Shown: positions 789-43,877 of the stretch, one piece after another
Numbering within the stretch: the stretch's first letter is position 1
Layout: each line of letters starts with the position of its first letter
Source: Rhynchobatus australiae
Lineage: Eukaryota
DNA: 64,000 bases
Assembly: GCA_034780895.1 (NCBI GenBank)
Contig: JAUZTB010008443.1
Coordinates: 1 to 64,000 of the forward strand
Direction of reading: 5' to 3'
Translations under genes and position numbers: made by a program
The notes under the pieces: model-generated
The model's database searches: none
What the model was told of the DNA's origin: nothing
What the model saw: the letters and a program-made list of their open reading frames with translations, nothing else

Positions 789-1256
789 CTAAGTGTAATT
801 AATTACTAAAAAAGGAATTGTAATTATTAACAGTAAAAAAGAACAAAAAGACAAAAAATATAAAAATGTATAATTTCGCTTTGCTTGCATTTTAATATAA
901 GTGCTTAAAGAAATGCTTTTGGAACGATTAGCCCTTGGTACAAAACGTAATTGTTCTTTAATGTTAACTTTGGCATTATAAAGCGCTACGCTCACGTTTT
1001 GCCCTAAAACGATACTATGAATGCGATTTAAAAAGAAAAGAGCTAGAGAAACGGCGCTAAAAACTGAAAGAGCATCGTATCAAAGCAAGCCATTGTGCAA
1101 AATTAAAACTAAATTGGAAATTAATAAAACAATTAAATAAAGAGTAAACTTAAGCGCATTATCGCGATTAAATTCACGCTCTAAAACAAATTTAAAGTGT
1201 TTATAAGTAAAAATTTGTTTTCATTTAGTTTTTCAGTTTTGTCAATACTTTTTCAT
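789..1256 (-). CDS. Small membrane protein (155 aa, about 3 TM) translationally coupled to oppF; DUF3899-like by position
   Basis: Code-4 ORF MKKYWQNWKTKWKQIF...; ATG overlaps the oppF stop (TAATG at 1258-1254); hydrophobic segments. Confidence 0.7.
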
Positions 1257-3616
1257 TATTGTGGCACTCAAGTTTTGATTTGTGCTTCGGTTCCAAAAAG
1301 ATAATGTTCTTTTTCAATTTCTTGGCGTACAATCACGTTAGGAAAACTTTGTGCTTCTAAATATTCTAGTGCAAAACTTGTAGAAATAAATTTTTGATTA
1401 GCATTACTAATCTTAGGAATTGATTTAAATAAATTAATAGTGTAAGGATGGAGCGGTTTTTGATAAATTTTATTAGTATTACCTTCTTCAACAATTTTTC
1501 CTAAGTGCATAATAATAGTGCGATTTGCAATATATTCCACCATACTTAAATCATGGGCAATAAAAATAATGCCAATTTTATTTTCCCGTCCTAATAATCT
1601 TAAAAGATTAACGATTTGCGCTTGAATGGAAATGTCTAAAGAAGCAATTGGTTCATCAGCAATTAAAAGTTTCGGTTTAGTAACTAAAGCGCGGGCAATG
1701 ACAATTCTTTGTCTTTGTCCACCACTAAATTCATGAGGATAACGATAAGCAAACTGGCGCAAAAGGCCAACAGCTTCTAAGGCGTTATAAATTGTTTTTT
1801 TAATTAATAATTTGGAAACTAAATATTTTTCCAGAGGATATTTTAAAAAGCTAGTTAAGGCATTTTTATAATGGCCAAAAAAGAATCTTAAAATTTTTAT
1901 GTCTTTTGTTAAAAATTTAAATTCACTATTAAATTTTTTTAAAGTTTTCATTTTTTCTTGGGCTTTATTTTCAAAATCTTTTAAGAGATTTTTGATTTCC
2001 TTAACTTTTAAATTACGCTTTTGATAAAGATTAGTTGCTAAGTTTTTAAAGTTAATTAAGTCTTTTTTGAAAACTGCAAAAACTTCTTTTTCAGCACCCA
2101 GATGCTTTTTAAAGCGTTTTTTTTCTTTTAAGTAAATAGTTTCCATTTGGCGATTAATTTTTTCTTGCTTGGCAGTGTATTTATTAATTTGCTCACGATG
2201 CTCGGCTCAAACTTTTTGGTAATGGGCTTGCGCTTTTTGATAAAGCTGCATCATTTTTTGATGATCAATTACGCGATTTAAATTTTTAATGGCTTTTTTA
2301 ATTTTGCTAATTGCTAATTTTGCTTCTGAACTTAAAGTTACTGTTGCCGTTTTAAAAGATTGTGCTTTGTCTAAATATTTATTAAAATCAAAATGATAAT
2401 TTTTTTTAATGTAATCTTTAATTTGTTTTGCTAAAGGTAAATCTAAATTTAAAGCTCAATTTGCTTTAATAAAAGTGCGATGGTACTGAAAAAGATCATC
2501 AAACAATTTTTGGATATTATCAACGTCTAAATGTTTAAATAAAGGATTAGTGAGGCTAATAAAGTTAAAAGGAGCAATTCAATTGAGCCTGGGTGCGATA
2601 ATGTTGCCACTATGGCCATAAGTAAAAGTTCTTTTAAGATGAAATAAATAAGTCGCTTGATTAGGCGCGCGATTGGCGCGCGAACGTTCTAATAAGTATT
2701 CATTACGTAAATCAGCAACTAAAGAATTTAATAAATTAGTACGGTTTCTTAATTTATCTTTGAGTTCTGCTTGATCTTTTCTGTTTTTTTCTTGCATCGC
2801 TTTTTTTTGTGCTAACAATTTTAAGGACTGATCGGTTTCTTTTAAATTAATTTTAGCGCGCCTTAAAGCTTTTTGCGCAGCTACTAAATTTTTTTCGTCT
2901 AAATCTAAATCGTTTTTTAAATACCTTGCTTGGGCTTTAAAATATTGATTATAAAGCTGATCTTGAATCGTGTATAAATTTTTAATGCTAGAGCTTTTAG
3001 CAGCTTGAATAGCATTTAAAGGATCAACTAAAGCATTAAAAATGTCATTAAGATTGTGATCTGTATTATTACTAATTTCTTCAAGATTAAGCGTTTGTAA
3101 ACGCGTTTGCGCTTTTTCATAAACTAAACTTAAGCTTTTATTAGTTTTAATGTATAAAGCGGCTGCGGCTTTTAAATAGGCATTGTTTAAAGTGTGTTTA
3201 AAATAGTAAGTAACTTCTTTTCAATTTTTAAAAATTTCTTTTGTTTCGTCTTTAATTATTTTATTAACGACTAAAGGTTCACGAATAATAGAAAAAACAG
3301 TTTTTTGTGAATTTAGTGAAGAGTGTGGATCTTGAAAAATCATTTGCACGTTTTTTCTTAAAAAACGTTGCTTTTCTTTAGCAATTTTGCGTCCTGAAAC
3401 AGTTTGCCCTAAGACTTTAACATTGCCCGAATAATCATCATAAAGACGAATTAAAGAACGCCCCACTGTAGTTTTACCTGAGCCTGATTCGCCAATAAGG
3501 CCAATTACTTCTCCTTCATGGACTGTAAAGCTAATATTGTCAACGGCTTTAACGATATTGCCACGATTACGGAAATATTTTTTAAGGTTTTGTATTTCAA
3601 TAATTTTCTGCTTCAT
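1256..3616 (-). CDS. oppF: Oligopeptide ABC transporter ATPase OppF with long helical insertion (786 aa)
   Basis: Walker A GESGSGKT, QMIFQDP, FSGGQRQR, LIADEP, HPYT; track fragments 3221-3637, 2579-2818 and 1268-2146 share one frame joined by TGA. Confidence 0.93.
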
Positions 3617-3617
3617 T

Positions 3618-4763
3618 TTATTTCCGTTCTTTAACAAAAGCTTCTTTAAAAGCTTGGATCCGTAACTTTAAAGCTTCGCTGATTTCAATTTTGGGGGCAT
3701 AAGGGTGTAAAAGTCAAGTAGCAGCGTAATGATTGTCTTTAACATGGAAAAGAGGGGGCTCTTTTTTAAAATCAATTTCCATAGCATAATCATTACGTGA
3801 AGCAAAAGGATCACCAACTGGTAAATTAGCCATATCGGGTGGAGTGCCTTCAATTGAGTAAAGATCTTGATCTTCATTTTCTGGAATGGAAGAGATCAAA
3901 GCCCAAGTATAAGGGTGCTTTGGATTTGAAAAGATGGCTTCGCGTGAACCTCTTTCAACAATTTTACCAGCATACATAACATAAATATAATCGCAAAATT
4001 TAGCAACCACACTAATATTATGAGAAATAAAAATAATACTAATGTTATAAGTGTTACGAATTTGTTCTAAAAGTGCTAAAACGCTAGCTTGTACAGTTGG
4101 GTCTAAAGCCGTAGTAGGCTCATCAGCAATAATAATATCGGGCTGTTTAGCAATCACCATGGCAATCACGACTCTTTGCTTCATTCCTCCAGAAAAAGTG
4201 TGGGGATAAAGTTTTAAGTTTTGCCTCGCTCCGCGCATGCCAAAAGATTCCAAAATTTCAACGACATAGTCTTCTTTTTCTTTTTTAGTTTTAAAACGGG
4301 GATCTTGATGTAAAGTATCGAGCAGCTGTTTGCCAATTGTGCGCGTTGGGTTTAAAGAAGTTAAAGGGTCTTGAGGAATGTAACCAATTTTAACGCCGCG
4401 CACAGCTTTTCAGTGTTTATCTTTTTTAAAGTTACTAATATCAATGCCACTCACTAACATTTTTTGAGCATGAAAAATAGCGTTCTCATTAACACCTAAA
4501 AAAGCTTTAGAAGTGACTGATTTTCCTGAGCCAGACTCACCCACTAAACCGACAATAGAACCGCGCTCAATTGCTAAATCAATACCACGAATAATGTGTA
4601 AACGTTTTTTTCTAGAAATGCGAAAATAAACATTTAAATCTTGCGATTCTAAGAGTAAATCTTTTTTTTGTTCAGTGCTTGTTTCTTTTTGTGCAAAAGT
4701 ATTGGCTGAAGTTTTTTTGGATTTTGGCGCTGTTACAAGATCGCTTTTTTTTATTTTTAACAT
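3618..4763 (-). CDS. oppD: Oligopeptide ABC transporter ATPase OppD (381 aa)
   Basis: GESGSGKS, PQDPLTSLNP, FSGGMKQR, IIADEPTTALD, HPYTWAL, RNDYA. Confidence 0.95.
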
Positions 4764-4765: not shown

Positions 4766-5977
4766 TTAACTTTTGCCTCGAATAATGCGTGGATCTAAAG
4801 CATCGTGTAAACCGATAGCGACAAACTGCAGCGATAAAGATAAAGATAACAAAATTAATGAAGGTAAGAGTAAACCTCAAAAATTAATACCGACGGTAGC
4901 GCGCGCATTGTTTAAAACAACGCCTAAATTATAAGTATTAGTAGTATCGATCAGTCTTAAAAATGCTAAGGCGGAAACAGCAAATACTACCGAAGGGATG
5001 CGCACTACAAAGCGTGCGATTAATTTACCAAAAATGGCTGGTAAAGCGTGCGAGAAAATTTGTCGTAATTTGGAAGCGCCGATTGATTTAGAAGCGATAA
5101 TGTATTCTTGATCTTTAACTAAAATAATGAAATTACGCGTAATTGCCATGGGACCGACCCAACCTAAAAAAGTTAAGATTAAAAATAAAGTGCCAAAACC
5201 AGAACCAAAAATAGCTACTAAAATAACGAATCAAATAAGCGGTGGAATTGCTGAAAAAATATCAACAATTCTTAAAAATAAAGTGTCTAAAGCTTTACCG
5301 GCGTGAAAGCCAACATAAGCACCTATTAAAACACCAATAATTACTTCAGTAGTCGTTACTAAAAGTCCAAGCCCAATGGCTTCTAAAGTGCCTGATCAAG
5401 TGCGCGTTCAAATATCAGCGCCTTGGCTAGTAGTTCCTAATAAAGTTTTAAGAGGAATAGCACTACCGGTAGCGATTTGTGATTGGATAGTATAAAAATC
5501 ATAAGCATTGTAAGTAACGATAAAGCCAATCCCTGTTTCTGAAGCTCTTAAATCGAAACTAAAAGGTTGCGCTGAGTTTTTGCTAAATTGGACGGCATCG
5601 TTTAAATTTTTTAAAAGCGGATCATTAGCAATGACTATGCGATTAATGATCGGTTTATAAGAAGGAGGCAGATTGTTAACAATTTGTCCTGCAGCATCAA
5701 ATTTATCAAAGTTTACTTTTTTAATGGGATCAAAAGTAGCACTTTGTGAAATAATTACTGACATTAAAATTAAGAGAATAAAAACAAATAAAGCAAAGGC
5801 AGCATAAGGATTAGAAAAGAACCGTTTTCACACTTCTAAAAAATCGTTTTTTGGTTTACCGACTAACTCAGCATTTAAATATTTAGATTTTTGTGCCGCT
5901 AGCGCTTTAAATTCTTGCGCTTTTAAAATTCCTAATTGGTATTTTTTATTAAAATCACTCGCAAAATTATTTTCCAT
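4766..5977 (-). CDS. oppC: Oligopeptide ABC permease OppC (403 aa)
   Basis: LGTTSQGADIWTR, EAA-like loop EYIIASKSIGAS, C-terminal GLHDALDPR. Confidence 0.93.
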
Positions 5978-5983: not shown

Positions 5984-7114
5984 TTATTCGCTTTCTTTTG
6001 TTTTTGCCGAAACGGTTTTAAGACTTTGATAACGATTTTTTAAAGCTCAGCTGATAAGTTTTTTATCACCTCAGCGCTTGTGCACTTTTCTTTGTAAATT
6101 CGCTAATCAAAAAGAAAAGTAATTGCTTGAGCTGCGGCTTTTGGCGAATTTAATCGTAGGATCAACGACAACGTATAGAGAATCAACAAAAATGCTAATG
6201 GCCTGACCGGCACTTGAAAAAAAGAGGGCATTAAACATAATGACATGAATTTCCCCTATTGTAAAGAAACTAATAATTGTCGTTGAAGAGCCTGGCACGC
6301 CAAAAAACTGTTCAATTAAAATATTGGAAGACAAAAGTCCTAAAAAGGAAGGAATAATTAAGCCTAAGACTGGTAAAGAAGCGTTTCTTAAAACGTGCTT
6401 AAAGAAAATTTGTCGGCCGCTTAAGCCTTTGGTTTTAGCGATTAAAACATGATTTGATGTTAGAACGGTAACCATTTGGTTACGCGTATAAATCATGTAA
6501 ATTGATAAAGCGCTTAAAACAGAAACAGTAATTGGTGTAATTAAAGATAGAAAAATCGTAGTTGTAGTAGTCGAGGCTACTTCGGAACGCCTAAACTCTG
6601 GAGGTAAGCCAATATTAACAGCAATAATAATGGCAATCGGGGCAATTATAAAAGCGGGTAAACCAACGAAAATATTAGTAAAAACATTAATTAATGAATC
6701 AATCAATTTACCACGATTATAAGCTGCGATCACGCCAAAGATAATACCAAAAATAGTGGAAATAAAAAACACCGGAATCGTTACTAAAATAGTAAAACGT
6801 AAAGGTCCAAAAAACGCTTGATCTGGAGTTAAATTACGATCAGAAAAAATGACACCTAAATCACCATTAACGAATAAATTGTAAACGTATTTACCAAAAC
6901 GAACGATGACTGGATCAAAAAAACCGTTTTGCCTTAACTCTTCGTTAATGACATCGTTTAAAGATAAGCCTGGAGGAGTAATTGGAGGCTTTTCTATTGC
7001 GGCTTCACGAATGGGATTTTTTCCTTGCGTTGCTTGCAAAAAATAAACAATAATTAATAAAGCAAAAATAGTGAAAAAGCCTAGAATAATTCTTTTAAGA
7101 ATGTATCGAAACAT
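5984..7114 (-). CDS. oppB: Oligopeptide ABC permease OppB (376 aa)
   Basis: MFRYILKRI start, AKTKGLS...KHVLRNA, IEQFFGVPG, VDP; TAA at 5986-5984. Confidence 0.95.
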
Positions 7115-7150: not shown

Positions 7151-7223
7151 ACTAATGGATCAAATTTTTTGATCCATTAGTAATTGTTTTTTGAGAGAAC
7201 ATTAAATTAATATTTAATGTTCT
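7151..7223. terminator. Two adjacent perfect hairpins in the oppA-oppB spacer (attenuator or mRNA-stability elements)
   Basis: ACTAATGGATCAAA-ttt-TTTGATCCATTAGT (7151-7181) and AGAACATTAAAT-taat-ATTTAATGTTCT (7196-7223). Confidence 0.7.
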
Positions 7224-7252: not shown

Positions 7253-10144
7253 TTATTTGCGAATTAAAACGCGTCGGTCTTGATAGTAGACCGCTTTTGA
7301 AGTAGAACGAGCAACAATGAAGCCCGGTTGACGTAGAAAAGCAGTTCCAGTTTCCAAATTGTTAGTTAAATTGCGACGTGAAAAAGGAGAGTTGGCAATT
7401 AAAGTAAGTTCTTGGATTAAATCTATTCATTCTTGATTAGTAATTTGATCTTGATATCAAAGCCCAAAACGGGCAATTTCAGTATCAGGATCAATTACTT
7501 TTTTGCTTACTGGATCGGTATATTCTAAATATTCTTTTACGTGCGTTCCTTCAGCGTTAGTAATTTCTTTTCAAGAATTAAAAGGTTTATTAAAACGTAA
7601 ATGTAATTTGTTTTTAGCACTATTTTTATTATCATCAAGCGCATTAAGACTATCAACGTTTTCTTGCATTGCTTTAGCAACTTTTTGTATCTGAGGAAAA
7701 GCTTGATTAGTTTCTTGTTGAGCAAATAAAGATAAAGCTCCGATTAAAGTTTTGTTATCACCATAAATTGAGGCGTGTAAAAAAGTTCCGGCGCCATCGT
7801 AATCACTGTTTCAACCATTAACTTCTGATAACCCTTGTTGTTGAATGAAGTGTGGGTATAGATTTTCACTTTGAGCAGGTTTGATACCAACAAATTTAAG
7901 TCGTCCTTTATCATCAAGACCGTTAAGAGCTTTAATTGTAGATTCAAGATTCTTAGTACGAGTTTCGTCCCAAGCAATTAAAAAGTAAGAAATTGTTGCT
8001 TCAATTGGATTATCTTTAGTTATTGAAGAGTATTCTGGCTTGTCTAATAAAGCAGTCATGATTTTTTTGAGTTCATTGTATTTAGGGTTGCGAAAAGCTT
8101 TTTCACTAATTGCATTTGATGAACCATTAAGAAAGTCTTGATAAGAAGTAGCAACTTTTTTTGTTCGGTCTTGTGCCACAAAAGTTGAGTTTAATTTTTC
8201 AAAACCATCGCGTGGCGTTTTTTCTTTAGATTTATTATGGTTACTTCCAGCTAAACTTATATCGGTTGCAAAGTGTGGGAATCAAGATAAAGAAGAATTA
8301 GCGCTTAAATTATTAGCTTGCGTTACTAAGTTAATAACGCTTGATAAAATAGTTCTAAAAGTAACGCCATCACCATCGTAAAACTGTTTTGTTGATTTTG
8401 CTGTTCCTTTTTTGAGCTCATCAATAGTAGCCCCATAAACGATTTTGGCATAACTATCATTGAAAGAGTAATTTGGCTCATTAACAATTTTTTCACCTTT
8501 TTTATTAGTGGTTTCAATATTAGGTTTAGGATAAGATAATCACCAAAAAACGTTAACACTAGAAGAAAAGTTTTTGCTAATTGAATAATCCAAGAAATTA
8601 TTAATCGGTTTTAAACTTTCATCAGTTCCCTTAATAAGGGCATCGCGTTTATCATCTGGAAGCCTTGAAAGGCCTAGTTCAGTAATTGTGCCACCAGCAA
8701 AAGCGTTGTATAAACGATTAGCTAAGGCACTAACATCAGTATTTTTTCCGTATATTGAAGTTAAGTTTTTTAGTGAAGTTTTTGATTTAACTCATTTTTG
8801 ATCAACAAAAAACGGATTAATTTCTGCTGTTTCCACTTTTTTAAATTTATCAATAAATTTAGGAACATAAGCGGAAGCAAAGAGCATTTTTTCGCGGTTT
8901 TTACCGTATCAATAAGTACCAATTTCTTTAGCTAAATTTTCTGCTTTACGCGTGATTTGTTCGGTGCTCGTTGAGCTAGTTTTTCCAGTAATGGTATTTA
9001 GTTCTTGATTTTCATCAGCTTTAATGTATTTAGTAGGAGCGATTACGTATAAGTAGGAATCAATGAAAAGGGCATCAAAAGCAAAGTCTAATTTTTGAGA
9101 ACCAGAGCTTTCATTAGCATAAACGGTATACGCTTTATCACCTTTACTATTAGTCGTTATAGCTTTAGCTTTTTCGCTTAATAAATCTCCTCTAATTCCG
9201 AAAAGATCGTATAAATATTCATTAGGAAAACGTGAAGTATTTTCAAAAATTTGATGAGTTGTTTCGGCATACAAAATATCATCTAAATCTTTAGAACCAC
9301 CATTACTACGACGAAAAGAAACTTCATACATTTTGGTTCTTAAATAAGAAGTCAAAATGTCTTCTGCTTCCACTACATAATCAGATTTTTCACCTTTATA
9401 ATTAACTCAAGGAATGTCTTTTTTTACAGAAATACTAAATTGTTTAGCATTTTTTAAATCTTCTAAAAATTGTGGGTTGTTAATACTATTAGCTTGATCA
9501 GAACTTAAGCGATAAGAAGTTTCTTTAAATGATTCACCAAAATCGGGCAATTTCTCATGAGCGTCACTATCGTAGTACTTAATAGTACCGTCTTTTAAAG
9601 TAATCTCCACCGCTTCTGCTATTTCTAATTTATAGTAAGCAAGTGAAGGTTGTAAAATTTTAATAGTGTTTTTAATACCACCATCTGCTTTAGCAACTGG
9701 GGTCACTTTTAATAAAGTTTGACCTACAGAAGCAGTTCTAATTATTTGTGGTGCGAATTTGCTAAAATCAGCAATTCCGGCTGAGCCATAAGCAAAAGAT
9801 TGATCATAACGGAAAAATTGATTAGGAAATTCACCATTAACATTGTCAAAAACTTGTCTGCCCAAAGCAACAGGAATCTCAGTATTAGGAATAACGTTTC
9901 CTACTGTTACACTAGAACCTGTATATTCTTCACCAAAAGCAGCTTTAGCTATTGTTTCTAAGTTGCTTTTCGCTTGATCAAAAGGCAAATTATCTTCAGT
10001 AATTACTCCATCTAAAAATGTTGCTGTAGAGTTATTTTTAATTTCATCATTAGAACAAGCAACTGCTACCGAAAGGGTGGCAACTGAAGCTACAAAAGCG
10101 CCTAAATGTAATAGTGTTTTTTTCTTAATTTTTTTTAAAAACAT
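7253..10144 (-). CDS. oppA: OppA-family substrate-binding lipoprotein (963 aa), cognate to opp operon 1
   Basis: AGGAG RBS; signal peptide with lipobox AVAC; GWNSDY motif; directly upstream of oppBCDF; one frame through several TGA. Confidence 0.88.
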
Positions 10145-10471: not shown

Positions 10472-11113
10472 TTAAACTGTTATTAATAAATCTTGATTTA
10501 TCTTCATAATAAAATTATTTTTATGTATTAATAAACGCTGATAAAAATGTTTTTCTCAGCTTATAAGATTTAGTTTTGCTTTTCGGATCAAGCTTTTAAA
10601 GCCTTTTGGCTTGCTACTTTGATAAATTAACAAATTATTGTTTTGCTTTTTATTACTTTTTGTAAAAAACTTTAAATTGATTGTAAAAAACTTTAAATTG
10701 ATATTAAATAACTTTTTAAAAAGGATCAAAAGTTTAATTATTAAAATACGATTATTTTTTTCATGAAGATCAAATTTTTTAATATCAAAGTGTGCTAAAA
10801 AAGAACGGTTTTTTTCTAGACTCAATAAAAGCGGAGAAACTATTTTTCAAGCTTGAACACTTAAAAAAGAATTTTTAGGAAAATTGTAATAATTTTTAGA
10901 CAAACTATCATTAAGCAGTTTTGCAAAATTTTCCATGAAATAAAAATTTTGCAAAACTCTTAAATAAGCTTGAAACTTTTGCTTTTTAAAAGCTGCAAGC
11001 TGGTAAGTAAAATAAGGGCCTTGATTTAATCAAGGATTTTCAATCAAAATCAAAAAAAGCGCTAAAGCTCACAGTTTTGAAAGATAGTTTTTTATTTTAG
11101 TTTTACTACTCAT
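10472..11113 (-). CDS. Hypothetical basic protein (213 aa)
   Basis: AAGGAG RBS then ATG at 11113 (MSSKTKIKNYLSKLWALALFLILIE...); open in code 4 to TAA at 10474-10472. Confidence 0.6.
10660..10701. repeat. Perfect 21-bp tandem duplication (in frame, INLKFFT twice)
   Basis: TTGTAAAAAACTTTAAATTGA at 10660-10680 and 10681-10701. Confidence 0.9.
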
Positions 11114-11330: not shown

Positions 11331-13832
11331 TTAAGCTAAATTTTTAGCTTTTGAAAATAAAGTCGTTCCCTTTTTTAAATCTTCTGGAAAGAGTTTTTTA
11401 ATTTGTGTAAAGAGCGATAAATAATTTTGTTGCTGGTCTCAGTTTGCGTTTACATAATTGTAATTTTTAATGCGAAAGTCTTGATCTTCTAAGGAATCAC
11501 TCGGTGTTTTATCTAAATAATCATATTCTAAATTAGTTTGAAAATAGATAGCGTAGTTTTTAGCCGTATCTTGACCGTATCATGAACTTAAATAATCATC
11601 ACTACTTCCATAAATCAGGCCAATAAGATTAAGGTTTTTATCAAAAAGCGGTGAGCCTGAAGCGCCTGAAGTTAACATTTGCGACTTTTGATAAGTTAAA
11701 CTAGCGCCATAGGCATTAAGATTATAAGAGCCGCCATCATTAGTTAAATAAACAAAAGAGCCTTGCTCGCGATAATAATCTTCGGAATTATTTTGATACC
11801 CAATAATAACATTAGAAAAAGCAGCATCATCACGATAAAGATAGTTATAGTTTCAGCCTAGGCCTATTTCTTGATGTTTTTTATGAGCCGAAAGGTAAAA
11901 ATCGCTTTGATTTTGAAAGCGAGGATAGCCCCCGGTAATCGCCTTATTAATGATTTGGTAATTACCAGTTTCTAAAGAAGAGCCCTGGCTTAGTGATTCT
12001 TTAGTTAAACGTTTATTTTGTTTTTGCGCAAAAAAATTACTTTTACGGCCATCATAATAATTGTCCCAATAAGCTTCTTGATTGAAAAAATCTTGATCAT
12101 TAATAGCACGCATTTTAGTAGGTCTTTTTAGAAACCAACTTTTTCAAGGATCATTTTCTTTTTCAAATTCAACTCTTAAAATTACTAAATCAAGCGCAGT
12201 TTTATTTTCTTGACGCGTATTTTTTAATGCTTGGTAATCTTTATTAATATTTACTTGATCATAATATTTAGCTTCATCTCAAGCTTTAGTTTGCACCTTT
12301 GAAAAATCGGCAACGTAATGAATCGATTTAATAAAGTCTTGATTAAGAGCAATTTCTAAAGGTGGCTTATCTAGTTTTTTAGTATCGGGACTAAAATTAA
12401 GACTTTGAGTAAAAGAAATCATACCTTTAAGATTAGCTTTTGCGTTTTGATGATGAATTAAATAATCAAAAAAACTATAAACTTTGCCACGAAAAAAATT
12501 ACTGCTTGAGTTATAACCTCAATTTTCAATTATTGTACCTAAAACATTAGAATTAATAACGTGCTTATTAGTAGCGATATAATAAATCGATTTATCTTGT
12601 ACTTTATCCAAGACTGTAGCTGTACCAATTTTTTTGAAATTGTCGTTTTTATAATCATCAAAAGTTAAATCTGAATAATCTTTACTTTTGATGGAACTTA
12701 TATTATTTCCTCTAGTTGAGTTTCCATAAAGTGCAAGAGTTCTTTCAGAAGCAATTTGTTTACTTGAAAACGTTTCGAAGCCATTTAGTTTTACTGTATC
12801 TAATAAAATAGTATTAGAAAGAATATCTTTTTCATATTCGCCAAATTTTAAGGTGCGTTTTAATACTCTTAAAGTAATTTCGCCTCTCTCATTGTCCTTT
12901 TTGATGTCTATAAAATAACGACTATTTATAGTATTAGGACTTAGATTAATAAGGTTAGAATATTTACTAAAATCAACATTATAAGGAATTTGTTGACGAT
13001 TAATTTTTTCTAGAACTTCTTTATTTAATTTGTTATAAATAATTTTAGGTTCTGAATTTTGATTAACAATTTCGTTTTTTGAAGTATTTTCTTCATTACC
13101 AAAGCCTGAAGGAGCATCATTTTTTTTAGTTTCTAAGTTAATATTATAAAAGTCCGTTTTTGTCGTTTGTCTTTCGCCTTTATGTTGCTTTTTAGATTGA
13201 TCAATTTCTGTTTTAGCTAACTCAGAATTGATTGAAGAAGGATGAGGTGGTAATGCCAAATTTTCACTATGATTAGTTATTCTTTTAGTATCATTTCGAA
13301 CTGCATTATTTCTTCTGTTGGTTGCTTGAGAAGGCGAATTATCAATAGTTTCAGGTTCTACTCAAGTAGTATTATTTTTTAGCTTATTTGATTTTTTATT
13401 TTCTTCTTTTTTATCGTGCAAGTAACCTTCTTCATTATCATTTAAAGAATCTGCGGAAATTTTATTAGACGTTTTAGTTTCCGCATTACTTGAACTATTT
13501 TCAAGATTGCTTAATGCTACATCTTTTTGATCATTTAAGTCATGTTTTTTATTATTATTTAAGGCTTTGGAAGAAACATTATCTGAAGCTTTAGCTTCTA
13601 CGTTATTTGAACTATTTTTAAGATCAATTGATTCTATTATTTTTGGTTCTGAAATATTTAAATCGTTGTCTATAGTTTTATTTAATTCTTCGTTTTTATC
13701 ATTTTTAATCGCGTCATTAGTTAGTGCACTGGAACACGAAAGTGCAACATAAGATATAGAACTAAAAGTTAAAAAATTAACAATTAGAAGCTTAGCAATT
13801 TTTTTTAAATTAATTGGTTTTTTTCAGTTCAT
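11331..13832 (-). CDS. DUF31/MIP-family serine endopeptidase lipoprotein (833 aa)
   Basis: Lipobox VALSC; GTATVLD...YYIATNKHV (His), ALDLVILRVEF (Asp), GGYP, LTSGASGSP (Ser); low-complexity N/K/S/E-rich N-terminal stalk. Confidence 0.85.
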
Positions 13833-22100: not shown

Positions 22101-22351
22101 GAGACGAAGGCTTTACTTCTTGAACCACCAATTATTTTTCATCTGGACTTTATGATGATGCCTTTTTAACCAAAGGCAAATACCGCCTTTTCTTTACTGA
22201 TAAAAATAATCAAGAGCTTGATTATTTAAAACTAAAAGATAATCATTTATTAACAGAAAATGGCAAATTAAAAGAAGCTTCAAGCTCTTTCATTTCTAAA
22301 AATGAAAACGGTGAAATCATTTTAGAAATTAAAGATCAGTTCGTTGTTTAG
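19118..22351 (+). CDS. PDxFFG-family surface protein with zinc-metalloprotease motif (1077 aa)
   Basis: N-terminal anchor; FYPDAFFGSLP near 19671-19703; YVATHEYAHHQTL (HEXXH) near 20342-20380; candidate third ligand in DYTWNFAETIGRD; directly upstream of oppA. Confidence 0.85.
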
Positions 22352-24744: not shown

Positions 24745-24746
24745 TT

Positions 24747-25796: not shown

Positions 25797-25799
25797 ATT

Positions 25800-26777
25800 A
25801 TGGAAATTAAAAATTTGTTAAAAAAGAAAAACCTTAAAAATAATTTAGAAGCCATTCCTAATCAATATTTACAACCGCTTAATTATAAAAATTGAGAAAT
25901 GATAGGCGCTATTTTTGCTGAGCATGAAAGGTTTACAAAACAAACGCCAAAAAAACGTTTTTTAAGTAATTATTGAAAACGTTATCGCACTAGTATTGCT
26001 GGTTTAATCGGACTTTTCACTTTCTTAGTTTTAGTAATTACTTCTTTAATCATTCCTTTAACGACTGTTGATCCTAAAAAAACAGATGTTACTAATAACT
26101 ATTTAGGGTTTATGACTAATGGTCACGTTTTTGGTACTGACAATTTAGGTAGGGATCTTTGAGCACGTCTTTGATACGGCTTACGTTTCTCCTTAGGGAT
26201 TGCCTTTGCCGTAACTTTAATGGATCTTCTGTTTGGTCTCACTTTAGGCTTAATTATGGGTTATTCAAAACGCTTTGACGCTTTAATGCAGAGTATTATT
26301 AAAGTAATTTCTAATGTTCCGGCGATTTTAATTATGATTATTGCCATGATTGCTTTTAAACCTTCATTTTGAATTTTAGTTTTATCTTTAACTTTAACTG
26401 GTTGAATTTCAATGGCCCAACAAATCAGGGCGCAAGTAAAAAGAGCGAGCACTTTTGAGTGGGTTAATGCTTCTAAACTTTTAGGAACGCCCACTTATAA
26501 AATCATTTTTAATTTTATTCCAGTAACTATCCCTATTGTTATTACACAATTAGTTTTCACTATCCCTTCAGCCATTATCGCTGAAACTTCTTTAGCTTTT
26601 ATCGGTTTATCAATTCCTAATCAATCTACTTTAGGTACTTTAATTTTTGATGGCTCAAAAATAATTACCCTTTTCCCACGTTACACTTTAGTTCCTGTCT
26701 TTTTCTTAATCACTTTAACAACAGCAATTCAACTAATTGGTAATGCAACGCAAAACGTAATTAGGAGACAACGCTAA
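25800..26777 (+). CDS. oppC: Oligopeptide ABC permease OppC (325 aa)
   Basis: HVFGTDNLGRDLWARLWYG, EWVNASKLLG, AETSLAFIGL. Confidence 0.93.
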
Positions 26778-33226: not shown

Positions 33227-36085
33227 ATGTTATTTACTAAAAAGACTTGGCTTAAGTTAGGCCTTATTACCCTAGCATCATTTAGCGCAATTGCGATGAT
33301 TTCTTGTGCTAACAAAAAAGCCACTCCAAATGTAAATTCAACTGTTGTTTTTATTGAAGATTCTGAAAATATTACTTTTGAAAAAGCTGTGCAAAATTTG
33401 CAAATCGTTGCTAATTCACAGTTTGGTGAGGAATTTAATGGCAAGGCTGTCACTGTTGCTAATATCATTCCTAATAGTGAAATCGCAGTAGTCAAAGGAA
33501 GGCAAGTTTACGAAAGAAAATCTGGTAATTTTCCAATCATACCTTTTTATTTTGACGTTAGCGCCTTTACTTTTACTGGCACTAACTCTTGACTTAATCT
33601 TTACTCAGCGCAACTTTTGCGTAGTGCTGCGCTAGGACAAAGTTTATTAGACGTTAAAGTTATTAATAATAATGGTGTTATCAAAAATGAAATTAGTGTC
33701 CGTCAACCTTCACTTACTTTTTACAAACTTGAACTAATTAAAACAATAGAAATTACTTTTGAAAATGGAACTATTAAAATTTATAACAATGATAAGCACG
33801 AGTTGCTTCCAGAATTTCCTGATCGTAAATTTCATGAAACTTCCTATCAATTAAGTTCCTTAGATCCCCATTCAATTAATAATCCACTATTTTTTGAGGA
33901 TCTGAAAAACGCTAAAAAAATTAGTTTATCGGTTAAAGATAATCTTCATTGAGTTAATCATCAAGGACAAAAAACAAAATATCTTCTGAAAGCTGAAGAT
34001 TTTTTCTTTTCCTATTGAAGAACCAAATTAGCAGATAGCAATTTTCGTCATCAACAAGGTGGCTCAAAAGATCTTGATGATATTCTTTTTGCCGAAACTG
34101 CATTCAATCGTTTTGGCGCTAATGCCAAAGTTAGCACACCTTATATTTATGATTTATACGGACTTGATCAAGAACTTTTATTAGATCGCGAAGCGAGCAT
34201 TAGCAAAAATAGTTTTAACGAAGAAGCTTTCACTTTACACGCTCTTAAAGACGTTAAGAATCGCCGTCTCGATTTAGCTTTTAAATTATTGCTTTTTAAC
34301 AATAATACTTTTTTACCTGTACCTAGCCAATACATTAAAGACAATAATCAAAAATTTAATGAGATTAAAGGCAAACGTTTTACCAATGATACACAGACAA
34401 TTAAAAGAAAAGTTCAGGGTTGAGCTGCAGAAACCGGGATTTACTGATACGGTAAAAATTTGGATACTATTTTATTTGCCTCACCTTTTATTCCTCACAA
34501 AATTTTTATTCAAGGTTCAGAAGGAACTATCACCTTTAAAGCCAATCCCCATTATGCTGATCAAGTTTGAGTTAATTCCAAAACACGGATTTTAGATATC
34601 ACAAGACAATATCAAAAAGAAGTTGATTTAAACGCTACAAAAACGCGTTTATACAATAGTTTTGCCACTGGCATATTAACTACTTTAGAGCTTTCACGCA
34701 TTTCAGAAAGCAAGCGACAAGGAATTATTTCAGGAACCGATCAGAAACTAAATCCAGCCCGTAAATATTTAAATTATTCAATTTCTAAAAACATTGATAA
34801 TTCACACAATGATTGGATGTGATTAGTGCACCCTAAAAGTTCTTCAGTTTCAGAAACAACTAAAGCCTCTAAAAAAGTGTTTAACAAAATTGAACCAAAA
34901 TACAAATGAAACGATAATTATGCCAAAATTGTTTACGGAACGACAATTGCCAAATTAAAAGAAGGTAAAGCTAAAGTTGCTGAACACTTTTTTAAAGGTG
35001 ATAGTATCACCTTTAGAACGCTCATTACTAGTGCCATTAATTTAGTAACACAAGCTAATAATTTAAGTGCACGCGTTTCTAAAACTTGATATTCACACTG
35101 ACCTACTGATGTTGAACTGTTGGGAAGCGATCATCAAAACGCTAAAATAAAAACGCCACGTGATGCTTTTGAAAAAATTAATACAACTTTTATTGTTAAA
35201 AATGATCAAAGAATTTTGGAAACAACTTATGATCAGTATTTACAAGGTTCTTTTAGTCCTCTAGAAGAAGAAGCTTTTCGTAATCCACAATTTAAGAAAT
35301 TACAAATTCTTATGACTAATTTATTAGATCAAGATCAATATCGCCAAATTACTCAATCAAACCCTATTGAAGCTGATCTTACTTATTGATTAAATAGTTG
35401 AGAAGATACACGCACCAAAAATCTTGAAAAAACTATTGCTGCTATTAACGCCTTAGACAAAAAAGGTAGAATTAAATTTAGAGGCGTGAAACTGAATGAT
35501 CCGGAAAGCGTTTTTGAACAATTTACGCGCTCACAAGGTACGATGGGATCTTATGGGCAGGCCGCAGATTATCCTGGGGCAGGAAGTTTTTTACACAGTA
35601 CGATGATTGGTAAGGGCGTAACTTTATTAGCGGCTTTAGGACTTTTTGGAAACGATCCAGTTGATTCCAAAGCTTTTCCTGAATTCCAAAAAGTGGGGCG
35701 TAGTTTAAAAAATAACATTGGCAAAGGAAATGGCTTAGAATTGCAATTTAAAGTGCCTTTTGAAAACTGACAAAATTTAACTAATGAGCAAGCCCAAGAT
35801 CTTAATCAGTGATTAGATTTTAAAAGTGAAAATAAAACGATTAATTACGCCACCGAATTAGCACGCTTTTTTTTAAGTTATCAAAACCAAATTACAAACG
35901 CGCAATGAATTAATTTAATTCATGAAATTACGATGCTTTGAAACACAATTTTTGAACCTCATAATCTTGTCGGTAATTTAAAAACGGGAACTCCAACTTT
36001 AGTACAACCTGGATATATTGTTCCGAAAACTACGAGTAATACTTCTTATTACAACGATGTTCGTTTTATTATTCGTGATACTTAA
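33227..36085 (+). CDS. oppA: Stand-alone OppA-family lipoprotein paralog P2 (952 aa)
   Basis: AAGGA RBS; lipobox MISC; GQAADY; ends RFIIRDT. Confidence 0.87.
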
Positions 36086-36879: not shown

Positions 36880-39738
36880 ATGTTATTTATTAAGAAGACT
36901 TGGATTAAACTAAGTCTTGTTGCCGCCGCCTTCATAAGCGTAACTCTATCAATTTCTTGTACAAATAAAAAAACAAATGCGAGTGATAATTCGACTGTCA
37001 CTTTTACTGAAAACGCTAGCGATATTACTTTCGAAAAAGCGCTACACAATTTACAAATCATTGCCAATTCGCGATTTGGTGAAGAATTCAATGGAGAACA
37101 AGTAACAGTTGCAAATGTTATTCCAAATAGCGATATCGCAGTTATTAAAGGTAGACAAGTTTTTGAAAGATTGTCAAGTAATTTTCCAAATCTACCTTTT
37201 TATTTTGAAGTAAGTACTTCATCATGAAATGGTCCTAGTAAGCGGGCTAATCTTTTCATTTCCCAATTAATAAGAACTGCAGCAATCGGACAAGCTTTAT
37301 TCGATGTTAAAATCGTTAATGATAATGGCGTTATTAAAAATGAAATTATTGTGCAACAACCATCATTAGATTTTTTGAAATTAGAATTAATTAAGACTGT
37401 TGAAATCACTTTAGATAATGGTTCAGTAAAAATTTATGATAATGATAAGCATGAAAAACTTCCAAAATTCCCAGAAAAAAAATTTAGTGAATCTTCATAT
37501 AAGTTAAGTTCAGAAGACCCAAGATCAATTAACAATCCACTATTTTTTGATGATTTAAAAAAGGCTAAAAAAATTAGTTTATCAGTTAAAGAAAACGTTC
37601 CTTGGGTTAATCATAAAGGTGAAAAAAGTAAATATTTTGTTAAAGTTGAAGATTTTTTTACTTCATATTTAAGAACACAACTAGTTGATAGTGAATTTAG
37701 ACGAAAAAATGGTGGATCAAAAGAATTGGACGATATTCTTTTAAGTGAAACAAATCAAATTCGCTTTGATGATACTAGCAAAATGGGCGCTTCTTATTTA
37801 TATGATCTTTATGGTATTAATGAAAAGCTTTTGTGAGATCGTAAAGCAACGATTACCAAAAACACTTTAAACGAAGAAGCCTTTACTGTTTATACTCTTG
37901 AAAAAGCAAATAATAAGCGCTTCGATTTGGCTTTTAAATTATTTTTTATTAATAATACGACTTTTTTACCAGCACCAACTCAATACATTAAAGATAATAA
38001 TGAAAAATTTAATACAATTGTTGGAAAGCGAAAAACAACCGATACTGAAACTATTACAAGAAAAGTTAGTGGCCTAGCCAATGAAACTGGATTTTACTGA
38101 TACGGAAAAAATCTTGATACTATTTTATTTGCTACACCATTTTTGCCAAACAAAGTTATTAATAACGCTTCCGAAGGCATGATTACTTTTAAAGTTAATC
38201 CGCACTATGTTGATCAAACATGGGTGAATTCAAAAACACGAATTTTAGATCACACCACACAATATCAAAAATCAACAGACGCAAGCGCTTTACAAACTCG
38301 CCTTTATAACGGTTTTGCTACAGGAATCTTAACCCATCTTGCTCTTTCAGAAATTCCTGATAGTAATCGCCAAGCAATTATTTCAGGAACAGATTCACTT
38401 TTAAAACCGTCCACTAAATTTTTAGATTACACTATTGCTAAAAATTTTGTTGCTTCACAAAACGATTGAATGTGAGTTGTCCATCCTAAGTCTAACACCA
38501 TAACTAGCGAAATTAAAAACGGCAAAAGCGTTATTAAAATTACTGAACCGAATTATAAATGAAACAATAATTACGCCAAAATTGTTTATGGAACTACAAT
38601 TTCCAAATTAAAAGAAGGCAAAGAACGAGTGGCAAAACACTTTTTTAAAGGTGATGGTGTTACATTTAGAACATTGATTACAAGTGCCATTAATTTAGTC
38701 ACGCAGGCTAATAATTTAAGTGCAAGAGTTTCTAAAACGTGATTTTCTCACTGACCTACTGATATAGATTTAGCAGGGAGCGATCATCAAAGCGCTACTT
38801 TTAAAACGCCCCGTGATGGTTTTGATCTCATTAATTCCACTTTTGTTGTTAAAGACAATAAAAGAATCTTAGAAACAACTTATGATCAATATTTGCAAGG
38901 TTCATTTAACCCTCTAGAAGAAAAAGCGTTTCGTAATCCCCAATTTCAAAAATTACAAGCAATTATGACTGAATTACTAGACAAAAAAGAATACTTAGAA
39001 ATTACTAAAGATAAGCCAATTGAAGCCGATATTAGCTATTGATTAACTAGTTGAGATTTCATTCGCAGTCACAATATTGATAGTACAGTAGCAGCCATTA
39101 ATGCTCTTGATAAAAAAGGCAGAATTCGTTTTAGAGCTACTAAAGCGACTGATGGCGGCACCCTTTTTGATCATTTTGTGCGTCAAGAAGGAACCATGGA
39201 AGCACACGGTTGGGCTGCAGAATATCCTGGAGCAGCAAGCTTTTTGCAAAGTACAATGATGGGACAAGGCATTACTTTACTTTCTGCACTTGGAGTTTAT
39301 GGAGACGATCCTGTTGATTCCGAAGCCTTCCCTGAATTACAAAAAGTAGCAAGGTCCTTAAAGAAAAATATTGGTAAAGGTAATGGCTTACAACTACGTT
39401 TTAAAGTTCCTTTTGAAAACTGAAAAAATTTAACTAATGGTGAAGCTGAAAATATGCATCAATGATTAGATTTAGAAGTTGATGGCAAAATGAGTAATTA
39501 CGCTAGTGAATTAGCACGTTTTTTCTTATATTATCAAAATCAAATTACTAATCAACAATGGATTAATTTAATTCGTGAAGTTACAATGCTTTGAAGCAGT
39601 CTTTTCCAGCATCGTAATATCATTTCTGATTTAAAAACTGGTAATCCTTCTCTAGTCCAGCCAGGATACATAATTCCTAAAACTAGCGCCAATACTTCAT
39701 ATTTTAATGATGTTCGTTTTATTATTCGTGATAATTAA
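36880..39738 (+). CDS. oppA: Stand-alone OppA-family lipoprotein paralog P3 (952 aa)
   Basis: AAGGA RBS; lipobox SISC; GWAAEY; ends RFIIRDN. Confidence 0.87.
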
Positions 39739-39757
39739 TTAAATAAATTTTTAATAC

Positions 39758-39790
39758 AAAAAGATCAAAATTTTTGATCTTTTTTCTTTT
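39758..39790 (+). terminator. Intrinsic terminator after P3
   Basis: AAAAAGATCAAAA-t-TTTTGATCTTTTT followed by a T-rich tail. Confidence 0.7.
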
Positions 39791-40045: not shown

Positions 40046-41230
40046 ATGGAAGAGTATCAAAATCTAGAACGAATAAAGTCTAATTTAGCTGAAAACCATT
40101 TTCAACTTTTTGATCAAGAAGCAAGAACGTTTGTCAAAGCGCCAGCGCGCATTAATATTATTGGAGAACATATTGACTATTTAGGTGGCAAAGTTTTACC
40201 AGCAAATTTAGACATATATTTATTTGCAGCTTTTTCTAAAAGCAAAAAATTTCATTTTTATTCGAGTAAAGTTTCACGCAAAATCTTAACTTTTGATGAT
40301 CAAAACAAATTCCACTTTATACCTACTTATGGTTATGCCAATTATGTTTTAGGAATTGTTCAAACCTTACGTGATCATGGTCATCGCATTAGTCCATTTT
40401 CTTTTAATTTAGTAACGCAGATGCCAATTGCATCAGGACTTTCTTCTTCATCGGCTTTTGGGGTTTTAATATTAGTCGCTTTGCGCAAAATGTTTGCACT
40501 AAAAATGAATAATACTGAAATTGCTAAAACTTTTCAAGAAGTCGAAAATAACTATCTAAATTTAAAAAATGGGATTATGTCTAAATTCATTATTAGTAAC
40601 GGTTTAAAAGACACGGCAATGCTTCTTGACATATCCGATTTATCTTATCAATTAGTTAAAATAGGCGATCTTCAAGGTGCTAGATTTTGAATTATTAATT
40701 CCAATAAAGCGCGAGCCGTGGTTGATTCGAAAATCAATAAACGTCTACTAGAAACATCTAAAGCCTTAAAATATTTAAAAGCTCACTTTAATCAAAATTT
40801 TGTTAATTTATCTTCTCTTCCTTTTAAACAAAAGGAACAAATTCTTAAGGTTTTAAAAAATCCAATTTTAAAGATGCGAACGCAATACGTTATTGAGGAA
40901 AATGAGCGCATTAATAATATCATTAAAGCCTTTGATAATAACGATGCTTTAGAAGTTGGTAAAATTCTTAATGATGCTCATCAAGGGCTTAAAAATTTGT
41001 ATCAAGTAACTTCGCCAGAACTAGATTTTATTCATGATTATTTAAACCAAATTCCTGATGTTTTAGGTGTAAAAATGACTGGAGTTGGTTTTGGTGGTTC
41101 TTTAATAGCTTTAACAAAATTTAACGATCAAAGTTTTTTTGATGATTTTTTAAAAGCATATAAAGAAAAATTTAATTTAGAAGCCGAAATATATCCTATT
41201 AATTTTGTCGATCATGCCAAAATTTTTTAA
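40046..41230 (+). CDS. galK: Galactokinase-family (GHMP) sugar kinase with divergent active site (394 aa)
   Basis: APARINIIGEHIDY, MPIASGLSSSSA, KMTGVGFGG; one TGA read-through at 40688; AAGG RBS. Confidence 0.85.
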
Positions 41231-41350
41231 TTGCTAATTTTGTTTAACGTTCCATGAAAATTGCTTTAACCAAAACTAAAGCTAAAGTAATATTTAAATA
41301 TTAATTTTTTAGAATTAAAAAAATTATAAATTAAACTAAAACAAAAAAAA

Positions 41351-41371
41351 TCCTATTTGATCAAAATAGGA
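41351..41371. terminator. Hairpin between convergent galK and GH31 genes
   Basis: TCCTATTT-gatca-AAATAGGA preceded by an A run. Confidence 0.45.
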
Positions 41372-42353
41372 CTTATCAAATTATTTTTTTATTTAGTGCT
41401 TCTTATTTACAAAAGGAACTAATCTAATCGTTTTAGATCAGCAAATTAATTTCTTTGTTAATTTATTTATTTTTAATAAAGAAAACATTCAAAAATTATC
41501 AATTTCAAATTAATATAAAACGCTTTAAAACTTTTACAAATAAAATTATTGTGTTTCCTAAATTTGAAAAGCAAAAACTAGCTTAGTAGTATATTAATAT
41601 TTTGTTTTTTTTGTATTTTGATAATCTTTAAAAAAACTATGTTTGCTATTTTTAAAGATTAAAATATGTTCTTATTATCAAAAAATAAATATTCTTATCA
41701 CTTTTAAATATTAATGATCATGATAGTTTTTTTAAAAACTTAATTGTAAAATTTGGTAGCTTTATTTTAACTTTAGTCGATTTAAAATTTTTTTAATTTT
41801 GCCTTAATTTAAAGTCTTATTTTGATTTTATCTTTAATCATTAATGTCCTAATCAAAAGTGCGCATTTTAATAAAATTTAGCTCAAAAAATTAAACATTT
41901 TAATTTCAAAATAAAGATGCTTATTTTTACATCACAAATGTTAATTTAAAAAGTCTTGTTTCTTTATTTTTAGAGTATGGTTAATTTTTTAAATAGCTAA
42001 AAATCTCAATAACAAAAAGGAAATAAATAGTAATGTTTTTTTGATTAATCTGAGTAACTCTTAGATTAACTTTTAAGACTAAAATAAGCTTTTTTAAAAA
42101 GTTGCCTTACTTCTTATAAAAGATTTAACTTTACTTTTGAAAACATGGAACAAAATTTCAAAGCGTTTAAAAAAGTTATTTTAGAAAATTGCATCTTCTT
42201 TTTAAAAGCTAACTAAAATTAAGAGTTTAGCTTATTTTAATAAGCAATTTTGCTATTATTTTAAATTGAATGGATCAAGCAAAGCCTTTAAAGATTGTAA
42301 AAAATTATGTTATTGAGCTTTTGATTTTGAATATTTAATTTAAATTATTTTTT

Positions 42354-43877
42354 CTAAGTTTTTTTAATTTTTTTAAAAATTAAAATTGAATCTAAATCAA
42401 TATCTACGATGTAATGGTGTAAACCGTGATAATAGCGTTTTTGATATTCTCACATGCCTGAGGGTAAATAAATAAGTCGTTGCTTTCGGTTTTTTTCTAT
42501 AATGGCAAATACAAAAATATCAGGTCCCAACATAAAACTATGTTTATCAAGATATCGTAATGGTAGTTTTTCATAAAATTCAGGAAAAGTTCAAAGCGGT
42601 TCACCAGTTTTTAAATAATTATTAATACGACTTTTAACAAGCGAAGTGTAAAGTTTTCTTTTATCCATTAATTTCTTAAAAAGAGGATAGTGTTTTTTAT
42701 CTAATACTTCTTGTGGCAGTGCCGAAAACTGTAAGATAGGTGAAAAAATTGCCAAAGCTAATCAACGTAAAAATAACTCTTGATCAAACGAAGTTTTATT
42801 TTTATAAAAATCTTTAATCTGACCGCCAATTAAATCAAGAACACCAATAAAATAACCCATAAGGGAACCATTACAATAATTAGGCACTAAAGTATTTATC
42901 CCAGATTGATCTCAACTATGTTTACGATCATGCAAACGTTGATTAATATTTGAAAAGTTAAAATTCATAGTTGTACGCATTTCATTATTGCTAAATTGAG
43001 TTGCAAATTTTGAATAAAGAAAATTATGATCGATAGCTTCTGATCTTGGTTCAACTTTAGCATTTTCAAGAAAATATGCTTCGCCACCATCAAATTTAAA
43101 TCCAGAAATTCCATAATCAGACATTAATTTTTGCAAAATATTTTTTATATAATTTCAAACTTTTTGATTTTTAAAATTAAATACATATGCATCACCTTTT
43201 CATCATTTAATTACTAAAGGTTGCTCTTTACTATTTTTAACTAAAAAATTATCTTCTTGAAATTTTTTTATTAAAGGCATTTTTAAACTTACATACGGAA
43301 CAATTCATAATCAAACTTTGAAATTCATTTTTTTTAATTCTTGTACTAAAAAAGCGGGATCTGAAATTTTTGAAGTATCAAAATTTAAATCACCATAATT
43401 TTTCATTCAACCATCATCAATGATTAAAGTTTTTTTACCAGGAAATTCTTGGTTAATTTTTTTAGCGTATTCTAAAATATTTTGTGTTGTAGTTTCAACA
43501 TTCATTGCAAGCAAAGTACTAAATTGAAACGATTCAACAAATTTTAAAAAACTTGGATCACCTTTGGGTGCGGCAAAGGTTTTTGCTCAATCAGCAAAAG
43601 CGGCAGCCATATTTTTGAAATTGTCTTTTTTAACTATAGTACTTTTAGCTTCTAAAGTTATGGCACCTCTTTTAGCACTAATTTTTAAGCCTTCTGGAGC
43701 ATGAAAATATTTACCATAATTTGAGAAAAGAATTCCACTTGTTTGATTATCAGTACGATTAATAAAGTTACTAAAAGTAAAATCGCTATTTTCATCAATT
43801 GGATATTTATAACCTAAAGCAGTGCTAAGACCGTAGAGGCGTTCATTTTTTTGTAATTGAAAACTGATTTTGTTCAT
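42354..43877 (-). CDS. Glycoside hydrolase family 31, MYORG/KIAA1161-like (probable alpha-galactosidase), 507 aa, no signal peptide
   Basis: LIIDDGW, GFKFDGGE (nucleophile Asp), GYFIGVLDLIGG (acid/base Asp), ELFLRWL...PILQFS, FMLGPD, YLPSGMW. Confidence 0.85.

Follow-up and report, generated by a model that had tools for sequence, protein, structure and literature searches.

Introduction

Polysaccharide-utilisation loci bring hydrolase, binding-protein and transporter genes together with a regulator. Mycoplasmas depend on host peptides imported through Opp transporters, and the enzymes that supply these importers are poorly assigned. Most mycoplasmas have two Opp systems, which are in tandem in Mycoplasma gallisepticum (PMC5797395). 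The Opp system of Borrelia burgdorferi has five binding proteins and two permeases, and its paralogous OppAs are predicted to bind distinct peptides and are separately regulated (PMC5736914). Here the window, i.e. bases 1-64000 of contig C8443 (124,625 bases), was analysed for its two opp operons and the galK and GH31 genes beside them. A first-pass annotation had described positions 789-43877 as an island for foraging on host glycoproteins, similar to a polysaccharide-utilisation locus. The sequence comparisons and structure models presented here point instead, with a probability of about 0.65, to a peptide-foraging cluster with several OppAs, beside which lie two altered galactoside genes that are unrelated to it.

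The assembly holding C8443 consists of 2.23 Gb in 81,522 contigs. The genes of the window were readable under genetic code 4. Among 80 oppD1 loci, nearly all of Mycoplasma type, the best had 59-67 % identity to its OppD1; C8443 appears to belong to a Mycoplasma which was co-assembled with its eukaryotic host. Five further code-4 contigs were found in the same assembly, and the code-4 set, fetched whole, amounted to 524,965 bases. Their genetic code, GC content and complementary gene content suggest that these contigs are from a single organism. The comparison sets, which contained no close relative of this organism, consisted of 179 family genomes and of 398 Mycoplasmatales genomes scored for GH31 (3 not scored). 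In the window, 32 open reading frames (ORFs) were scanned with profiles, 20 of them in 789-43877.

The PDxFFG protein and the Opp2 operon

The opp2 operon was complete on the plus strand (19118 to 29149) and included a PDxFFG gene, oppA2, oppB2, oppC2 and a fused oppD-F:

19118..22351, plus strand: PDxFFG protein with an N-terminal membrane anchor and an HEYAH motif, predicted zinc metallopeptidase (NF012210, 163 bits, cut-off 150)
22363..24744, plus strand: OppA2, SBP_bac_5 binding protein (Pfam match), membrane-anchored, no lipobox Cys
24747..25796, plus strand: OppB2 permease (profile matches)
25800..26777, plus strand: OppC2 permease (profile matches)
26777..29149, plus strand: OppD-OppF in one fused frame, with two ABC_tran domains and a linker of about 60 residues
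29157..29213, plus strand: two hairpins 3' of oppDF2, predicted end of the opp2 transcript (z -4.5)

PDxFFG and OppA2-type genes were confined to the same 109 of the 179 family genomes. In 107 of these the PDxFFG gene was at most 13 kb upstream of an OppA2-type gene on the same strand, and in the remaining two the genes were on different short contigs. The HExxH motif (as HEYGH) was present in 25 of 38 frames of PDxFFG homologues; the other 13 stopped short of it, mostly at the edge of the locus. As judged from gene content, PDxFFG and Opp2 constitute a putative protease-plus-importer module, which is family-wide and conserved without sugar genes, and to that extent this half of the proposed foraging locus was supported. 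The PDxFFG protein, the function of which is called unknown in the literature found, is predicted to be a zinc peptidase. Its link to Opp2, together with the conserved HExxH motif, is the sturdiest result of this analysis and makes it a directly testable candidate for a feeder peptidase.

The gene order of opp2 varied among relatives, and OppD and OppF were two separate ORFs in all eight of their opp2 loci that were visible whole. Lipoproteins encoded after opp2 in four relatives were considered as extra OppAs and rejected, as none of seven was OppA-like. The closest relatives of OppA2 (44-46 %) were found in genome G416 (L185, L188), which has one PDxFFG-oppA2 pair without oppBCDF and another locus in which PDxFFG is split over two ORFs.

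The Opp1 operon and the binding proteins

The opp1 operon, which occupies the minus strand between 10144 and 1256, contained complete oppA1, oppB1, oppC1, oppD1 and oppF1 genes, and the window thus has two full Opp transporters on opposite strands, as originally annotated:

7253..10144, minus strand: OppA1, NF045850 lipoprotein heading opp1 (532 bits, cut-off 100)
7196..7223, minus strand: hairpin of 12 pairs, located between oppA1 and oppB1 and predicted to be an attenuator or stabiliser (z -5.65, 0 of 200 shuffles equally stable)
5984..7114, minus strand: OppB1 permease (profile matches)
4766..5977, minus strand: OppC1 permease (profile matches)
3618..4763, minus strand: OppD1, ATP-binding cassette (ABC) ATPase (profile matches)
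1256..3637, minus strand: OppF1, ABC ATPase with a long insertion (profile match; matched in 80 of 80 oppD1 loci)
789..1271, minus strand: membrane protein of 160 amino acids, overlapping the end of oppF1, no family above cut-off

A protein of the NF045850 class stood at the head of opp1 in 68 of the 80 loci, and the class was matched in 176 of the 179 family genomes, often more than once per genome (the per-genome counts are lower bounds, and split matches may be among them). Of 72 genomes carrying Opp1 and Opp2 on the same contig, 4 had them within 30 kb of each other; of 329 matches 150 were listed, and 102 of these entered the count. The two were also adjacent in the relatives G004 and G434, and no galK or GH31 match was found in those adjacent loci. 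Both Opp operons are ordinary staples of the family.

The annotated number of five binding proteins was correct, but they fall into two classes: four are NF045850 lipoproteins and one is of the SBP_bac_5 type, with no BLAST similarity between the two. Three of the lipoproteins were encoded outside the operons:

29399..32254, plus strand: OppA3, orphan lipoprotein of the NF045850 class, with a predicted binding-protein fold of cluster C (profile and model)
33227..36085, plus strand: OppA4, orphan NF045850 lipoprotein (profile match)
36880..39738, plus strand: OppA5, orphan NF045850 lipoprotein (profile match)

OppA3-5 were 65-78 % alike, 44-46 % alike to OppA1 and less than 30 % to the OppA of other species in the best BLAST segments. 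Being nearer to OppA1, they arose within this lineage from the Opp1 class. The spacers upstream of oppA4 and oppA5 were 66 % alike over 421 nucleotides, so that the duplication included both the gene and its upstream region. Since their class heads opp1 in most loci, OppA3-5 probably serve the Opp1 permease and not the adjacent Opp2.

The model of OppA3 had a predicted local distance difference test score (pLDDT) of 85.8 (22 sequences). The top four Foldseek matches were the pneumococcal AliB, AliD, AmiA and AliC, followed by other peptide binders, and the comparison with Haemophilus influenzae OppA (6dtg) gave a Z score of 17.5 and a root mean square deviation of 5.0 over 484 aligned residues. 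No oligosaccharide binder was present among the 50 VIA rows for the model. On the basis of the model a peptide is the favoured, not proven, ligand of OppA3.

Alternatively, the main role for which the orphan OppAs are retained might be that of surface adhesins or of antigen variants, given that OppA of Mycoplasma hominis is also a cytoadhesin and ecto-ATPase (PMC3179953) and that a long AT-rich spacer precedes each copy, two of these spacers being homologous. However, the ratio of non-synonymous to synonymous substitution rates was well below 1 (0.17-0.38 over six OppA pairs), which indicates purifying selection, and no 50-column windows were identical between the copies, i.e. recent gene conversion was not seen. 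Tandem repeats were not found directly upstream of any OppA copy, the only one in the spacers being a 27-mer in two copies, and no recombinase was found in the block. This explanation is considered unlikely.

The GalK-family gene

One gene of the GHMP type followed oppA5:

40046..41230, plus strand: full-length GalK-family protein containing the three Pfam domains of GalK

The protein scored below every NCBIfam galactokinase cut-off. The galactose-binding signature and the GHMP ATP loop were present. Ser179 replaced the catalytic Asp of the GIMDQ motif and Ile230 the Tyr of SKYN; the Asp and the Tyr were each found in 120 of 120 homologues, and each of the two replacements is at least two base changes from any Asp or Tyr codon. 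The positions align with those of Lactococcus lactis GalK which we take to be Asp183 and Tyr233, the Tyr presumably being a sugar contact. The annotated kinase family was thus confirmed, but the catalytic residue is missing; in sugar kinases the role of catalytic base falls to a conserved Asp (PMC10465942; bioRxiv 2022.03.07.483271).

An assembly error was considered as a source of the substitutions in GalK and GH31. A contig with 120x coverage from one sequencing run showed no differences over 38947-45000, which includes both genes and disfavours such an error, with the reservation that the run may be the source sample. The same run had almost no cover at 26000-29800 and was uninformative there.

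In a quick tree GalK grouped with the mollicute GalKs, at the end of a long branch (1.35, compared with a median of 0.16). The gene was present in 9 of the 179 family genomes, in all nine together with a LacZ-type gene, galE and galT, and with an APC-type permease in the six where the contig reaches; several of these lactose/Leloir clusters (L104-L112) had a YgjK-like glucosidase. The names lacZ, galE, galT and permease in these clusters are our presumptive assignments from motifs and length. Neither galT nor galE was found in the present assembly, nor any of nine Leloir-cluster proteins in the fetched code-4 contigs, which are an incomplete set, and 722 queries revealed no decayed Leloir genes in the spacers of the window. 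The gene is predicted to encode a pseudo-galactokinase or a retooled kinase; it is likely that it is no longer a galactokinase and that it is a leftover of a mollicute lactose/Leloir cluster.

The GH31 gene

The glycosidase gene was preceded by a long spacer:

42354..43877, minus strand: GH31 (PF01055, 71.8 bits, cut-off 23.5), no N-terminal hydrophobic stretch or signal peptide, in agreement with the first-pass annotation
43878..47261: 3.4-kb spacer upstream of GH31, 17 % GC, unusually long without genes for a Mycoplasma, no gene remnant found

No Rfam or protein match was obtained in the spacer. The best PDB matches of GH31 were the alpha-galactosidases 8J53, 8J50 and MYORG (E 8e-57, 6e-43 and 3e-36, respectively), the first two of which we take to belong to subfamily GH31_19. 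Eight site residues of MYORG were kept, including both catalytic Asp (nucleophile and acid/base); Asp263 and Asp317 correspond in the alignment to Asp463 and Asp520 of MYORG. In an ungapped extension of the MYORG alignment, Leu122 was located at the equivalent of Trp321, a column which is Trp in 62 of 64 homologues. Trp321 of MYORG determines galactose specificity through a clash with glucose, mannose and xylose (PMC9491548). With Leu in place of this gate, strict release of galactose by GH31 is not assured, and the protein is likely to be active in the cytoplasm as a glycosidase that has become less selective for galactose.

Among the matches listed, no representative of 1.84 billion sequences was more than 35 % identical to GH31, and no close relative was found in the 398 Mycoplasmatales genomes scored. 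Seven weak matches in 6 of these genomes, and another in G435, were rejected as orthologues, being of a longer type, 21-26 % identical, and in several cases beside PTS-like (phosphotransferase system) genes. A pattern-based search of the genome contigs for GH31 synteny found nothing. The gene appears, from these comparisons, to have been gained horizontally long ago.

GH31 and GalK could also be a two-gene unit of their own, retooled off galactose, with GalK acting as a base-free kinase or as a Gal3-like sensor. In GH31 the galactose gate was replaced while eight other site residues were kept; GalK has lost the Tyr at position 230, yet its frame is intact and the sugar motif is otherwise conserved, and its long branch lies inside the mollicute clade. 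In each enzyme the lost residue is tied to galactose recognition. Yeast Gal3p is a kinase-dead sensor, but it retains its Asp (bioRxiv 2022.03.07.483271). The two genes are, however, convergent and 1.1 kb apart, no partner regulator was found in the window, and the organism is divergent overall, so that a unit of this kind is unlikely. Whatever their role, GH31 with its changed gate residue and GalK without its Asp are natural test cases for the specificity rules of two well-studied enzyme families.

Linkage of the galactoside genes to opp and import of sugars

In the window galK and the opp genes were separated by a predicted transcription end:

39758..39790, plus strand: hairpin of 12 pairs and a U-rich tail, located between oppA5 and galK and predicted to act as an intrinsic terminator (z -2.71, 2 of 200 shuffles equally stable)

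The hairpins after galK and GH31 were not significant. Synteny of GH31 and galK with opp, which the first-pass annotation had proposed as a check, was absent in relatives: opp genes were beside galK in none of the nine loci (12-20 kb fetched per locus), none of the 80 oppD1 loci contained galK, GH31 or PDxFFG, and the one family GH31 locus (1 of 179 genomes), of another type and beside a PTS-like gene, had no opp within 40 kb. In relatives GH31 and galK were therefore unlinked to opp, which is the genomic finding that the annotation itself had named as speaking against it. The literature found, which was available in part, contained no report of an opp-galK-GH31 locus.

Designation of the block as an island was not supported. 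The GC content at third codon positions was 0.18 in galK and 0.15 in GH31, compared with 0.17-0.26 in four housekeeping genes, a codon composition like that of the genome and hence no sign of a recent island, and scans of the window found no tRNA, integrase or transposase at either end of the block. No regulator gene was recognised among the 20 ORFs in 789-43877, one of which, of 830 amino acids, had no family. A promoter scan was uninformative (108 sites, 116 expected by chance).

None of the 32 ORFs scanned matched a sugar-transporter family, as had been noted before. It had also been reasoned that GH31, having no signal peptide, needs an importer, which in the proposal would be Opp. On the other code-4 contigs there were genes for a monosaccharide ABC ATPase resembling GguA, for an RbsA/RbsB-like system as part of an inositol cluster, for a PTS of mannitol-like type, for a glucose EIIA and, next to nanA, for an SSS symporter, several of these importer matches being below equivalog cut-offs; PTS enzyme I was encoded there as well. 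With sugar importers encoded elsewhere, GH31 does not depend on Opp by default, and these importers are at most candidate carriers of its substrate.

These results bear on the original proposal, in which host glycoproteins are cleaved outside the cell, glycopeptides enter through the OppAs, and galactose is released and phosphorylated inside. All the parts are found within 43 kb, alpha-galactosidases are the nearest relatives of the cytoplasmic GH31, some proteins with the binding-protein fold bind sugars, and the organism has other genes for host glycans, e.g. nanA with its SSS symporter. Trimming of glycopeptides requires several glycosidases, and only one was found. Together with the missing synteny, the loss of the catalytic Asp in GalK, the terminator-like hairpin before galK, the location of GH31 on the other strand, the absence of a recognised regulator in the block and the sugar importers on other contigs, this makes the proposal as a whole very improbable. 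Also improbable is joint retooling of GH31 and GalK for a non-galactose host sugar, each having lost a residue that reads galactose, with OppA3-5 importing the matching oligosaccharide or glycopeptide. This would be the first mollicute glycan-foraging locus made from peptide-transport parts, and Opp-type proteins would then serve glycan uptake in a minimal cell.

Other genes of the window and of the code-4 contigs

Four ORFs were located between the two operons:

10472..11113, minus strand: ORF of 213 codons, probably not a gene (first-position G 0.11, compared with 0.20-0.35 in 15 other genes)
11331..13832, minus strand: lipoprotein of 833 amino acids with trypsin-like His/Asp/Ser motifs in order, predicted surface serine protease
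14356..16848, plus strand: orphan ORF of 830 amino acids, no signal peptide, no family match
18192..18809, plus strand: ORF of 205 codons, probably not a gene (first-position G 0.14)

The lipoprotein had been annotated as a DUF31 serine protease. Its lipoprotein nature and trypsin-like motifs were confirmed, but it gave no match to the DUF31 (PF01732) and MIP (NF045841) profiles at E 0.01 and 0.001. The score with Trypsin_2 was 21.9 bits, below the cut-off of 27.6, and the match to the Jep protease was weak (E 0.61). The His/Asp/Ser motifs were kept in a paralogue on contig C3499, one weak match was obtained in the 179 family genomes, and no homologues of the serine-protease domain were found in the protein collection. 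The ORF of 830 amino acids had homologues in none of the 179 genomes, and the 722 queries matched nothing at 10472..11113 other than the ORF itself. At the start of the contig (59-269) there was an ORF of 21-nucleotide (7-residue) tandem repeats, and a similar heptad-repeat ORF opens contig C27986.

A MIP-family immunoglobulin-specific serine protease was encoded on contig C37600 (L142:7263-9806), with an NF045841 score of 201.7 bits, above the cut-off. Contig C3499 carried a myo-inositol catabolic cluster (L127-L128) with its own ABC importer and iolD above cut-off, and a homologue of the Mycoplasma pneumoniae CARDS toxin (L126:6017-7798; 593 amino acids, nearly whole length, E 4.5e-69 to 4TLV), which adjoins a sialic-acid cluster with nanA and the SSS symporter. 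Three short ORFs on the same contig (L113:149-532, L125:9366-9782 and L126:94-564) had near-identical starts and form a small repeated element, and the genes at L117-L118 resemble what is presumably a relic of a conjugative element.

Discussion

In the mechanism that is preferred here, the membrane-anchored PDxFFG protein would act as a zinc peptidase that cuts host proteins and feeds Opp2, with which it would share a transcript. OppA1 and OppA3-5, the latter transcribed separately, would supply the Opp1 permease at a distance of 22 kb with different peptides and thereby widen peptide uptake. GalK would be a leftover gene of a Leloir cluster, its galactokinase function likely gone, and GH31 would be active in the cytoplasm, supplied by sugar importers encoded elsewhere.

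Several observations weigh against this explanation. The code-4 set was incomplete: an initial, stricter search did not find mycoplasmal rpoB, and of the expected GTPases no more than 4 were matched, so that galT and galE may exist after all. With no close relative in the comparison set, a young lineage-specific island could not have appeared as synteny. GalK has its full length and retains Arg35, Glu41, His42, Asp44, Tyr45 and the ATP loop, and this intactness, with most of the sugar motif, suggests some retained role. Its long branch is in part due to the general divergence of the organism, GAPDH being 47 % and GalK 42-44 % identical to the same relatives. Loss of conserved columns (12 of 79 in GalK and 13 of 58 in GH31) was considered as proof of decay and is weakened by the control, since the Opp1 genes also lose 5-13 % (OppD1 8 of 172, OppC1 8 of 74, OppB1 9 of 71), and only the identity of the residues lost from GalK and GH31 counts. 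For the PDxFFG protein the structure model, with a pLDDT of 46.5 and without a Foldseek match at E 0.001, was of too low a quality to bear out the zincin protease fold implied by its annotation as a metalloprotease, or a third zinc ligand. The likeness of OppA3 to peptide binders was seen at only 7-14 % identity, and sugar binders share its fold (SPH1118 at rank 28, the first of them, and MelB at rank 47). A significant hairpin was not seen after oppA3 or oppA4.

Among known systems the Borrelia Opp is the closest design, having in common with the window five binding proteins and two permeases. The window differs in having, within 39 kb, two ATPase sets, two unrelated classes of OppA and a peptidase-like gene in one of the operons. 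In the pneumococcal Ami-AliA/AliB system several binding lipoproteins act on one permease, as is suggested here for Opp1, although the identity to the Ali/Ami proteins is 10-12 % and the Mycoplasma proteins have about 950 amino acids compared with about 620. The opp-I and opp-II transporters of the hominis group, two per genome and in tandem in some species (PMC5797395), are both represented, and the window adds three tandem OppA1 paralogues and the fused OppD-F. GalK shares clade and domains with the mollicute Leloir GalKs and differs from them in the replaced Asp and Tyr and in having no galE, galT or lacZ alongside. GH31 shares the catalytic pair and six further site residues with 8J53, 8J50 and MYORG and differs in the Leu gate, in an identity of at most 35 % and in having no signal peptide. 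Hydrolase, binding-protein and transporter genes occur together as in polysaccharide-utilisation loci; unlike these, the window has no recognised regulator, a single glycosidase and no conserved linkage, and binding of glycans by its OppAs is conjectural, so that its nearest counterparts would be the multi-OppA peptide importers.

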